A DNA stretch of 64,000 bases, from IMG/VR virus record IMGVR_UViG_2698536476_000008. One strand, 5' to 3'. Made by a program: the position numbers and the translations under genes. This DNA is from a virus (taxonomy: Duplodnaviria; Heunggongvirae; Uroviricota; Caudoviricetes). Below the pieces are notes generated by a model, which made no database searches, had not been told where the DNA came from, and saw nothing but the letters and a program-made list of their open reading frames with translations. Within the stretch, counting starts at the first letter, position 1; each line of letters opens with the position of its first letter. Shown piece by piece: positions 42,832 to 45,360 of the stretch.

Positions 42832-43464
42832 AGAATGAACATACCACCCAGGGCGACTAGGACTGTTTTTTGTGTCGGTAGCGGTCCGTCACTCACTCGT
42901 GAGGACTGTGCTGCTATAGAAAAAACTGGCTGTTCAATCATCGCGGTTAACAATTCCTGGCAGATGTTCGATGACATTTATGCCTTATACGCCGGTGATT
43001 TGTCATGGTGGAAGCAATACGGATCCACCATACCGGGAGGGAGATTCCGCAAAGTGACAGCCAACCTGGCGGCGGCGAAATCATTTTCGTTGGAGTACAG
43101 GCGATATTGTGGACCGGCGGAAGGGGTAAATAGCGGCGCGCAGGCTATCAGTCTGGCTGCTGAATCAGGGGCTGAAGTAGTGGTATTAGTCGGCTATGAC
43201 TGTTCTCTGCAAAACGGCCTTCATTGGCATGGCGCGCACCCTCAAGCACTACGGAATCCAACGCAGGTGTCTATTTCAAAATGGCAACAGCAGTTCCTGG
43301 ATACCCGCAAAAAACACGCAGATTTACATATTTTGAATGCAAGTAGGAGCAGTGCAATTCAATGTTTCCCAAGAATAAATTTAGAGGCAGTGATCGCGTT
43401 ATTATCGTCGGCAGTGGCCCAAGCGCCGCAAACTTTGTTGCGCCGCGCGGAGTGCCGATTATAG
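42832..43464 (+). CDS. Rossmann-like protein, paralog 1 (GSGPS motif)
   Basis: VFCVGSGPS...IIAVNNSW...NSGAQAISLAAESGAEVVVLVGYD; paralogous to next gene. Confidence 0.45.
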   Translation, partial: RMNIPPRATRTVFCVGSGPSLTREDCAAIEKTGCSIIAVNNSWQMFDDIYALYAGDLSWWKQYGSTIPGGRFRKVTANLAAAKSFSLEYRRYCGPAEGVNSGAQAISLAAESGAEVVVLVGYDCSLQNGLHWHGAHPQALRNPTQVSISKWQQQFLDTRKKHADLHILNASRSSAIQCFPRINLEAVIALLSSAVAQAPQTLLRRAECRL

Positions 43465-43988
43465 CGGTCAATGGGGCCATCGACTGGCTTAACCGCGCTT
43501 CTTATTTTTTCACCCTTGATCCATCCCCAGACAATATGCGGCGCGTTGGTCGTGGCCGCCGTCGCCGTGGTGTTTGTTATTGCATGGCACTACCCGATGT
43601 TAAAGAACGTGAAGTCAGAGATGGCGTTCTGTGCTTCCGTCGTGTGGCTGAACGCGGCATGGAGCCAAAAAATACGAATTCTCCCGAGTGGTGGGCGTGG
43701 CGCTGGTCCGCACATTTCGGCCTTTGCGAAGATGAGAATGAAATTGCCAGCGGCAATAGTGCATATGGTGCTCTGAACCTGGCTTTCCATATCGGATTCA
43801 AACATGTAGCTCTGGTGGGCGTTGACGCTACGCAAGAACTACGCGTTCACTCCGGCGGCACGCCAAAAAATCTAAGTCACCTGCCTTTGTTATTCCAGTC
43901 TGCGCGTGAACAGATTGACGTTGTTTCATGCGGGAAAATGGGAGGTATTCCGCAGATGACTCTTAAAGAATGGCTGAAGAATACATGA
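43362..43988 (+). CDS. Rossmann-like protein, paralog 2 (GSGPS motif)
   Basis: VIIVGSGPS...IIAVNGA...[25 protein letters not shown]. Confidence 0.45.
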
Positions 43989-44662
43989 TGGCACCCACAA
44001 TTTATCACCGTATCGACGGTACCAAATACAGGAATGTCTGGGTTGTTGGTGATCTGCATGGTTGCTACACCAGACTGATGTCCGAACTCCATCGTGTGGA
44101 TTTTGACCCGGCGCAGGATTTACTGATATCGGTCGGCGACCTTATCGATCGCGGTACTGAAAATGTCGAATGTCTGGAACTATTGCAGATGCCCTGGTTC
44201 AGGGCAGTGATGGGGAACCATGAGCGGCTGATGATTGATGCGTTAAGTCCAGATGGCAACGTGAATAACTGGCTAATGAATGGCGGACAATGGTTCTTCA
44301 TGCTGGACACTGATCAGGAAATATTAGCCTGGGCGCTGGTGGAGCTGGTAAAGCGTCTGCCCTATATCATTGAGTTGAACACGGGGCAAGAAACTATCGT
44401 TATAGCCCATGCCGACTATCCGGATAATGAATACCAATTCGGTAAGGAGGTGCCGCTTTTCAACGTTGTCTGGGCGCGCGAGCGTATCAGTGATTCGATG
44501 GATGATATTGGTGGCGAAATTTCGGGCGCAGATCGTTTTATCTTTGGTCACACTCCGGTGAAAAGCCCGAAGACATTCTGGAATCAGCAGTATATCGACA
44601 CTGGTGCCGTATTTTGCGGAAACCTGACATTGATGAAAGTGAAAGGTGATGGTGCAGCATGA
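43970..44662 (+). CDS. ppp: Ser/Thr protein phosphatase, lambda-PPase type (start may be 43985)
   Basis: GDLHG, GDLIDRG, GNHE metallophosphatase motifs. Confidence 0.8.
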
Positions 44663-45360
44663 AGATTGCTTTAGTTTTTCGCTCTGGTGGTGACTATAAC
44701 GCTTCCGATGTGCAGTGGCTGGTTAATCAACTGCCAAAAGACTATGAAATTATTTGCCTGACAGACCTGAAGTGTTTACATGTACCTGGCGTCAAAGTTA
44801 TCCCATTGATCAACCAGTGGCAAAAGTGCCGTGGCTGGTGGGCGAAAATCGAGTTGTTCCGACCGGATATAACCGATGATCTGTTCTATCTGGATTTGGA
44901 CACGGTTATTGCCGGTGATATACGCCCAATCCTAGAGCATCCACCAACCAGCTTCACCATGCTTAGGGATTTTTACCATCCACAATATCGTGGCAGCGGT
45001 GCCCTGTGGATACCAAATAGTGTTAAAGCGCATATCTGGAGTTCATTCTGGCAAGATCCGGAAGGTTGGATTTCTCGTTGTGTCACTACTGAGTGCTGGG
45101 GTGACCAGGGGTTCTTACGAAAGGTTATGGGCGATGATACACCAGCATTTCAGGATCTGTATCCAGGATGGTTTGTAAGTTACAAGGCCGATGTTGTGGA
45201 ACCTGGTTCAAAATATGCGAGCGCGCGTTACTCCAGGGGGAATGGGGCATTACCAAAAGACTGCCGAATAATCTTTTTCCACGGCAAACCGCGACCTCGC
45301 GAAGTGTCAGAGGATTGGCTTCCCCTTATCAGCTCATTTTTTGAGCGAGAATCAGAATAA
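44659..45360 (+). CDS. Hypothetical protein with DxD motif (233 aa)
   Basis: FYLDLDTVI. Confidence 0.45.

Follow-up and report, generated by a model that had tools for sequence, protein, structure and literature searches.

A putative glycan-building gene module (pmgO, pmgP, pmgQ, and dbn) in bacteriophage P1

What do the genes pmgO, pmgP, and pmgQ of bacteriophage P1 encode, and do their products act together? The DNA considered here is a stretch of 64,000 nucleotides (nt) from the IMG/VR virus record IMGVR_UViG_2698536476_000008 (hereafter the window), which corresponds to P1 (AF234172 / NC_005856), with 99.5% identity over 2.9 kb around pmgO-pmgQ. The same region was found in about 20 P1-like phage-plasmids. 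P1 is among the most used phages in genetics, and approximately half of its genes have no assigned role. The GenBank record of P1 lists the pmg genes under "putative morphogenetic function", the P7 record lists them as hdmA-D with "head morphogenesis", and the automated RefSeq names are "alpha-2,3-sialyltransferase" for PmgO, "norphogenetic protein" for PmgP, and "glycosyltransferase" for PmgQ. The initial annotation of this stretch regarded two adjacent proteins of about 200 amino acids (aa) as a Rossmann-like pair and grouped them with a phosphatase, a protein with a DxD motif, and a more distant glycosyltransferase (GT) gene in a possible modification module. The comparisons below indicate that pmgO, pmgP, and pmgQ, together with dbn, probably form a phage-borne glycan-building module that is expressed late or upon induction, and that the phosphatase gene ppp merely lies inside it. 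The genes concerned are as follows (window position = P1 position - 36790 throughout; CMP, cytidine monophosphate).

42705-42860, forward strand: pmgN, small acidic 51-aa protein, overlaps pmgO
42802-43464, forward strand: pmgO, putative CMP-ulosonic acid transferase subunit with a Maf/MptE-like (sialyltransferase-like) fold
43362-43988, forward strand: pmgP, divergent pmgO paralogue, putative partner subunit
43970-44662, forward strand: ppp, lambda NinI/PrpA-like Ser/Thr phosphatase
44659-45360, forward strand: pmgQ, GT8-like retaining GT-A glycosyltransferase
35869-36867, forward strand: dbn, putative GT-B (GT4/GT1-like) glycosyltransferase, last gene of the ban operon

PmgO contains the motifs CVGSGPSLT, IIAVNNS, and VVLVGYDCS, and the three shared motifs (GSGPS, IAVN, and VLVGxD) that had led the initial annotation to pair the two proteins are present in PmgP as well. 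Pairwise BLASTP aligned only the N-terminal 36 aa (E 0.003). Family profiles built from 20 relatives of PmgO and 21 of PmgP, compared with hhalign, matched over 161 columns with 98.3% probability (E 1.7e-14). The two proteins also cross-match each other's PHROG family (E 1.8e-5 and 6.3e-4), and in a metagenomic protein of 376 aa (P0051), a PmgO-like domain is joined head to tail with a PmgP-like one. This fusion passes the Pfam model PF01973 (MptE-like / DUF115) at 44.6 bits, and several other homologues carry a precomputed MptE-like domain. Taken together, the profile match, the shared MptE-like and PHROG matches, and the natural fusion indicate that pmgO and pmgP are true and old paralogues. 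Tandem proteins with two PmgO-like domains were also found (P0221, P0242, P0264, and P0293), and the recurrence of two-domain arrangements (O::P and O::O) suggests that PmgO and PmgP act as a pair. PmgP additionally has an inserted basic, Trp-rich segment (PEWWxWRW) that is conserved in its family. The fold of PmgO is common to many uncharacterized phage proteins; its family profile matched 7,009 representatives of 50%-identity clusters with E<=1e-3, including 501 with E<=1e-30.

The AlphaFold2 model of PmgO (predicted local distance difference test, pLDDT, of 88) has the predicted three-layer alpha/beta nucleotide-binding fold that is common to Maf, MptE, and Cst proteins, and its best structural match is the glycosyltransferase Maf (162 aligned residues). 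The Rossmann-like character first ascribed to the pair is thus consistent with both the profile comparison and the model. At the motif level, the xSGPS loop, NSG, and GxD of the PmgO/PmgP family align with GNGPSL, SG, and GID, the CMP-binding motifs of Cst-II, and also with VGSGPS and LFGVD(415) of Maf; the spacing from S to D is 22 residues, as between S132 and D154 of Cst-II. The Asp of GxD (D123 in PmgO and D155 in PmgP) is invariant and aligns with D415 of Maf, in a sequence alignment that is very weak (0.8 bits), and D56 of PmgO and D53 of PmgP may be the equivalents of Maf E324. D415 is reported to be essential for Maf activity, and Maf enzymes expressed in E. coli transfer 3-deoxy-D-manno-oct-2-ulosonic acid (Kdo) from CMP-Kdo (bioRxiv 10.1101/2020.06.03.131540). 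The invariant residues are D25, N40, D56, WW, SG, D123-C-S, H131, H133, and H136 in the PmgO family, and N37, D53, S55, N58, R61, NS, D155, GG, and H173 in the PmgP family. Each protein retains its own set of invariant polar residues, which suggests that both may be catalytically or ligand-competent. Both families are basic, with median isoelectric points (pI) of 8.3 for PmgO and 9.2 for PmgP.

For PmgQ (233 aa), the DxD motif had been taken as glycosyltransferase-like, and the comparisons place it more precisely among the GT8-type enzymes. Searched against the PDB, its family profile matched the GT8 enzyme AgtA (E 4.8e-6), followed by GlyE and glycogenin. The best matches of the PmgQ model (pLDDT 93.8) are all GT8 enzymes (scores of 16.8 for AgtA, 16.6 for GlyE, 16.6 for glycogenin, 16.5 for LgtC, and 15.2 for WbbM); the modelled fold is GT-A, with GT8 structures nearest. 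Across 23 family members, no variation was seen at D79 and D81 (the DxD motif, D79-L-D81), K63, G148, D149, or H208, and at least 90% of the members have Q150. The DxD, K63, G148-D149-Q150, and H208 all align with the GT8 motifs of AgtA and glycogenin, and H208 belongs to a C-terminal motif, H208-G-x-P-R-P. Most GT8 enzymes are longer than PmgQ, which belongs to a phage-centred family of its own (phrog_1962).

The three genes also remain together across distant genomes. Using hidden Markov models of the three families (O, P, and Q), 26 non-redundant loci with a PmgP relative were scanned; their diversity comes from a scan of species-dereplicated genomes, and a scan of viral contigs gave P1 copies only. 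A PmgQ relative adjoins or lies near the PmgP relative in 23 of the 26 loci, the three exceptions being short contigs or contig ends, and a PmgO relative is present in 21. The adjacency of O, P, and Q is kept in about 20 independent lineages, which comprise lambdoid, HK97-like, jumbo, and virulent phages as well as chromosomal loci rich in Big_1 proteins. In a podovirus-like contig (locus L003), an O::P fusion and Q lie beside the lysis cassette. In lambdoid prophages of Citrobacter rodentium (L006) and E. coli (L110), the module is located between Rz and terminase. In HK97-like prophages of Pseudomonas, Zhongshania, and Gilvimarinus (L007, L100, and L109), it is placed downstream of the major capsid gene, ahead of the head-tail connectors. 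Another HK97-like contig encodes a fusion of an O-like domain with a TylF methyltransferase (P0331) between connector genes. The module was also found in an Alloalcanivorax prophage (L108) and in large phages, namely the 111-kb coliphage EP_H11 and the jumbo phage XacN1, and relatives occur in genomes of Brevundimonas, Methylophilaceae, Commensalibacter, Sinomicrobium (Bacteroidota), and Longimicrobiales. Some copies are degraded or partial. In the E. coli prophage L110 (7588-8342), the PmgQ homologue is split into pieces of 150 and 76 aa and is therefore probably a pseudogene, and PmgP is similarly broken in L102. D3-like Pseudomonas phages have a PmgO-like gene only, near capsid and head-tail adaptor genes. 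In phage D3 itself (L116, 5691-6409), it is annotated as the overlapping orf6.5 and orf7, and a single open reading frame (ORF) of 198 aa (5813-6409) spans the domain.

The composition of these clusters provides a hint to their function. Enzymes found with O, P, and Q include methyltransferases dependent on S-adenosylmethionine (L100 and L108), an FkbM methyltransferase (L106), TylF-like methyltransferases (the P0331 fusion, and one fused to Q in XacN1), a carbohydrate sulfotransferase (L109), and extra GT-A-like or GT2 enzymes (L003, L101, and L113). Such sugar-tailoring enzymes, inserted in or fused to the O-P-Q cluster, are the signature of a glycan-building pathway. No PADLOC defence model matched PmgN, PmgO, PmgP, PmgQ, Ppp, Dbn, or the extra GT-A-like protein.

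The four-gene module that the initial annotation envisaged, with Dbn as a possible further member, therefore requires a change of membership: O, P, and Q stay, dbn probably joins them, and ppp drops out. The phosphatase assignment itself holds. Ppp is a calcineurin-like phosphoesterase (PF00149 Metallophos, 59.3 bits against a cut-off of 21.5) that matches phrog_246 (NinI-like; E 5e-113) and scores 272 bits against the PrpA-type NCBIfam equivalog, under the 326-bit cut-off. However, in every lineage examined outside the P1 group, P and Q have no phosphatase gene between them, and phage D6, which lacks O, P, and Q, carries ppp in a nin-like region. The gene is thus an insertion into the module and not a conserved member. 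Dbn, by comparison, reaches 25.0 bits for Glycos_transf_1 against a cut-off of 26.4, over its C-terminal domain only. In P1 it is located 6 kb upstream, with six opposite-strand tail and baseplate genes between it and pmgL-Q. In EP_H11 (L111), a homologue with 48% identity over 314 aa (6572-7540) lies between the P and Q homologues, and coliphage IME392 encodes PmgO, PmgP, and Dbn homologues. Each of the 22 phage records with a Dbn relative is also one of the 27 with a PmgP relative, the jumbo-phage matches among them being partial and weak. The link that had been drawn to this gene is supported by these patterns, and dbn is probably the fourth enzyme of the set. The PmgP homologue of EP_H11 (L111, 6001-6582) lacks a GenBank coding sequence (CDS) and falls in the gap between the CDSs at 5471-6007 and 6572-7540.

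Regarding expression, the following signals flank the genes in P1.

41705..41723, forward strand: LPpmgL, late promoter upstream of pmgL-pmgM (P1 annotation 78495-78513)
42606..42632, forward strand: PpmgN, predicted sigma-70 promoter (P1 annotation 79396-79422)
42645..42661, reverse strand: Oppp (Op83), C1 repressor operator (P1 annotation 79435-79451; window sequence aaattaattagtgcatg)
45362..45378, forward strand: OpmgRa, C1 operator directly after pmgQ (P1 annotation 82152-82168)

Because the pmgN-pmgQ operon lies behind the C1 operator Oppp and a late promoter, it is expected to be silent in lysogens, which makes the assay in lysogens that had been proposed for this locus ill-suited. Read-through from LPpmgL could yield late expression of the module. 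OpmgRa starts the next operon (pmgR-pmgS) and therefore sets the downstream limit of the module. Consecutive genes overlap (pmgN/pmgO by 59 nt, pmgO/pmgP by 103 nt, pmgP/ppp by 19 nt, and ppp/pmgQ by 4 nt), and the small overlaps between module genes are consistent with translational coupling. The annotated start of pmgO is 42802; an alternative ATG is present at 42835, near which the PmgO homologues start, and the 42832 given in the initial annotation is one codon upstream of it. At the other end of the gene, in the overlap with pmgP (43362-43464), the last 20-30 or so residues of P1 PmgO are unconserved in homologues and modelled with low confidence. The 103-nt overlap may therefore be a recent C-terminal extension of PmgO.

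The first gene of this operon, pmgN, has no BLASTP match among the small ORFs that precede O elsewhere and is not conserved with the module. It was scored as essential by CRISPR interference (CRISPRi) and as non-essential by deletion (PMC10695390). A polar or roadblock effect is a possible explanation for this discrepancy, since pmgN overlaps pmgO and heads the operon. However, a polar effect alone fits poorly, given that knock-down of the downstream genes is itself harmless. Two neighbours are also of note. PmgM (42060-42638) has a sub-threshold match to the VRR-NUC nuclease (21.3 bits against a cut-off of 23.8), and Pap (46997-47503) scores 44.1 bits against the HAD phosphatase domain of polynucleotide kinase-phosphatase. 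The label "morphogenetic" suits PmgM poorly, as does "acid phosphatase" for Pap.

These features can be combined into a tentative scheme. PmgO and PmgP, as two diverged copies of a Maf/MptE-like catalytic domain, would most likely pair as a heterodimer (a pseudo-dimer) and transfer an ulosonic acid from its CMP-activated form, and in E. coli K-12 the donor would be CMP-Kdo, the sole CMP-ulosonic acid there. PmgQ would act as a Mn2+/DxD-dependent retaining GT8-type hexosyltransferase and Dbn as a GT-B enzyme, both adding hexoses. Jointly, the four enzymes may build a short oligosaccharide, which the inserted enzymes of other phages would further methylate or sulfate. C1 would repress the module in the prophage, so that expression follows induction or infection; in other phages, expression would come from late operons.

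As for the acceptor, we tentatively prefer protein, at somewhat less than even confidence: virion or other late proteins in phages, and Big_1-domain proteins in the chromosomal loci. Maf, the closest structure to PmgO, is a protein glycosyltransferase, and the module follows the major capsid gene or lies among connector genes in four HK97-like genomes (L007, L100, L109, and the P0331 contig). In L109, a 129-aa protein (6166-6555) with PTEPTEPTE repeats and an S/T/P-rich linker is encoded between the capsid gene and the module. It has weak similarity to a capsid decoration protein of PhiKZ, and this Pro/Thr/Glu-repeat protein is a plausible substrate of O-glycosylation. In three independent sets of bacterial loci (Pseudescherichia/UBA7338 L094-L098, Serratia plymuthica L004, and L113), O, P, and Q are interleaved with invasin-type inverse autotransporters or other Big_1 proteins, and in one case Big_1 and Big_13 domains are fused to an O-like enzyme. 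A more specific version, in which CMP-Kdo and uridine diphosphate (UDP)-hexoses are diverted onto virion proteins by O-glycosylation (and onto Big_1/invasin-type proteins by the chromosomal versions), is rather unlikely to hold in full. Several of the Big_1 proteins in L004 (CP180221; 4014-17785), L113 (1343-11598), and L095 (235-14419) apparently have no beta-domain, and a holin and a phage-type lysozyme are encoded nearby in two of these loci. This arrangement is reminiscent of the holin/endolysin-dependent (type 10) secretion of glycosylated cargo.

Several points weigh against a glycan-building module that modifies proteins. The activities of PmgO, PmgP, PmgQ, and Dbn are predicted from comparisons of sequence and structure. 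P1 PmgO and PmgP both miss the gathering threshold of PF01973 (23.4 and 20.9 bits against 34.6), and P1 PmgQ reaches no Pfam threshold, with three of 24 family members matching PF01501 at E<=0.1. PmgO and PmgP have no equivalent of the flanking protein-binding domains of Maf, which fits small glycan or glycolipid acceptors, as for Cst-II and WaaZ-like enzymes. Sites adjacent to capsid or lysis genes are also classical insertion sites of morons, and a search for Big_1-like proteins gave none in the 64-kb P1 window or the phage loci. PmgC and PmgG are the only additions to the virion proteome, PmgO, PmgP, and PmgQ are not among the virion-associated proteins reported, and neither this proteome nor single-gene deletions in P1 gave a phenotype (PMC9024508). 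Glycopeptides, however, would escape standard proteomics.

The genetic data agree on dispensability. Of 29 single-gene P1 knockouts, 24 had no plating or antirestriction defect (Gonzales et al.; PMC9024508). Knock-down by CRISPRi found pmgO, pmgP, ppp, pmgQ, and dbn all to be non-essential, and the deletion data cited there concur (PMC10695390). The four module genes are thus dispensable for plaque formation in the laboratory. These results also argue against the role in structure or assembly that the pmg and hdm names imply. In addition to those names, the PmgO homologues of PAJU2 (ORF010; L117, 7780-8349) and Klebsiella phage Eowyn are labelled "structural protein", on a basis that could not be traced. 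Against this, the proteins have enzymatic folds and conserved catalytic motifs, deletion and CRISPRi caused no plating defect, and PmgC and PmgG alone were added to the proteome. Glycosylation of phage DNA is a further alternative, DNA modification being another target for which an assay had been proposed. However, no base-hydroxymethylation gene turned up in the P1 annotation or in the other module loci viewed, and we know of no sugar hypermodification of P1 DNA, so modification of DNA is unlikely for P1. A structural role or DNA glycosylation together would explain the locus only with very low probability. Somewhat less improbable is that PmgO and PmgP are ATP-dependent pyrophosphokinases of the MptE or thiamine pyrophosphokinase kind, which would use a small molecule or sugar as substrate and perhaps cooperate with the phosphatases Ppp and Pap. 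Because the fold is shared, this explanation retains a low probability, while the best structural match is a glycosyltransferase, GSGPS, NSG, and GxD align with the motifs by which Cst-II binds CMP, and the conserved partners are glycosyltransferases and sugar-tailoring enzymes rather than phosphatases, ppp not being conserved with the module.

The more serious competitor of a protein acceptor is lipopolysaccharide (LPS), with its inner or outer core as the second option for the acceptor, a possibility that we hold to be on the unlikely side. Here, PmgO and PmgP would resemble WaaZ, the E. coli KdoIII transferase of the LPS inner core (Pfam PF27901 WaaZ_KDO_III), and add an extra Kdo to the inner core, while hexoses would be added by Dbn and by PmgQ, a GT8-type enzyme like WaaO, WaaJ, and LgtC. 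The altered or truncated core of the infected cell would mask the P1 receptor on debris or exclude core-binding phages. WaaZ belongs to the same superfamily and has an N-terminal motif in common with PmgP (E 1e-4), and the fusion P0051 has a "faint" precomputed match to PF27901, the sole one to that family. The PmgQ profile aligns over 154 columns with WaaJ, a transferase of the E. coli outer core (E 2.4e-4), and LgtC is a further relative. As minimal basic domains, with a conserved Trp/Arg-rich insert in PmgP that suits membrane or sugar binding, PmgO and PmgP would be appropriate for such an acceptor, and every identified host is a diderm that makes Kdo-lipid A. However, membership in the WaaZ family was rejected, the hhalign probability being 25% over 41 columns for the PmgP family and 8% for the PmgO family. 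The module is C1-repressed in P1, lies elsewhere in late regions beside lysis or head genes, and is also present in apparently virulent and jumbo phages; lysis would intervene before LPS made at such a late stage could replace the outer leaflet already in place. Moreover, the association with Big_1 proteins is left unexplained. This LPS-core remodelling account as a whole therefore appears possible but doubtful, and protein is retained as the tentatively preferred acceptor.

The literature searched yielded no study of the function of pmgO, pmgP, or pmgQ beyond essentiality screens. The enzymes fall into known superfamilies, and database labels had hinted at glycosyltransferases. We found no earlier description of the O/P/Q (+Dbn) module, of the pairing of half-size Maf-like enzymes, of the module's frequent siting in capsid operons, or of the Big_1 association. 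Four P1 genes labelled "putative morphogenetic" or unknown can thus be viewed as a specific and testable enzymatic module, very widespread and often found in capsid operons. The database labels should also be corrected: "alpha-2,3-sialyltransferase" is unsupported for PmgO, "norphogenetic protein" is uninformative for PmgP, and ppp should not be read as a member of the module. If the acceptor is a virion protein, phage virion glycosylation would extend beyond mycobacteriophages, in the first such system known from phages of Gram-negative bacteria, present in P1 and thousands of prophages. Virion stability, adsorption to debris, and immune recognition could then be affected, and stability and immune recognition are relevant to phage therapy. 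If the acceptor is LPS, the module would constitute a receptor-editing system of the lytic cycle.

Among characterized enzymes, Maf proteins (e.g., that of Magnetospirillum, PDB 5mu5) are about 600-700 aa long and carry helical domains at both termini, whereas PmgO and PmgP are bare domains of about 200 aa. Maf genes are located in flagellar glycosylation islands with genes for the biosynthesis of CMP-activated nonulosonic acids (NulO), whereas PmgO and PmgP occur in phages as a diverged pair or a fusion, and no flagellar or NulO genes were found in the module loci examined. WaaZ (CAZy family GT73) has the same sub-threshold MptE-like match as PmgO and PmgP and resembles them in being a small single domain with a basic pI, and its donor, CMP-Kdo, is present in all hosts. 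However, WaaZ is a single 283-aa protein encoded in the waa operon, whereas PmgO and PmgP belong to a paired module with a GT8 partner. The Campylobacter enzymes Cst-I and Cst-II (GT42) are the source of the sialyltransferase label that RefSeq and PHROG attach to PmgO. Assignment of PmgO as a GT42 alpha-2,3-sialyltransferase is not supported: the Cst-II profile matches have E values of 0.1-1.4 and involve motifs only, and neither the lid domain nor the place of the catalytic His is conserved. To our knowledge, E. coli K-12 has no sialic acid pathway and hence no CMP-N-acetylneuraminic acid (CMP-Neu5Ac) donor. KdoT of A. baumannii was also considered and rejected, being a GT-B enzyme unrelated to PmgO and PmgP.

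For the glycosylation of virions, Freeman et al. are said to have described the case of mycobacteriophages in 2023. We know of no demonstration of virion glycosylation for P1 or any phage of a Gram-negative host. The glycosylation of mycobacteriophage virions, like that of the capsid of chlorovirus PBCV-1, differs in relying on other enzyme families and on Gram-positive-type hosts. The AAH/TibC autotransporter heptosyltransferases are unrelated in fold and family and provide a conceptual parallel only. They are cytoplasmic enzymes that divert adenosine diphosphate (ADP)-heptose, an LPS precursor, onto the passenger domains of adhesins, much as a CMP-Kdo-using module beside invasin/Big_1 proteins might do.

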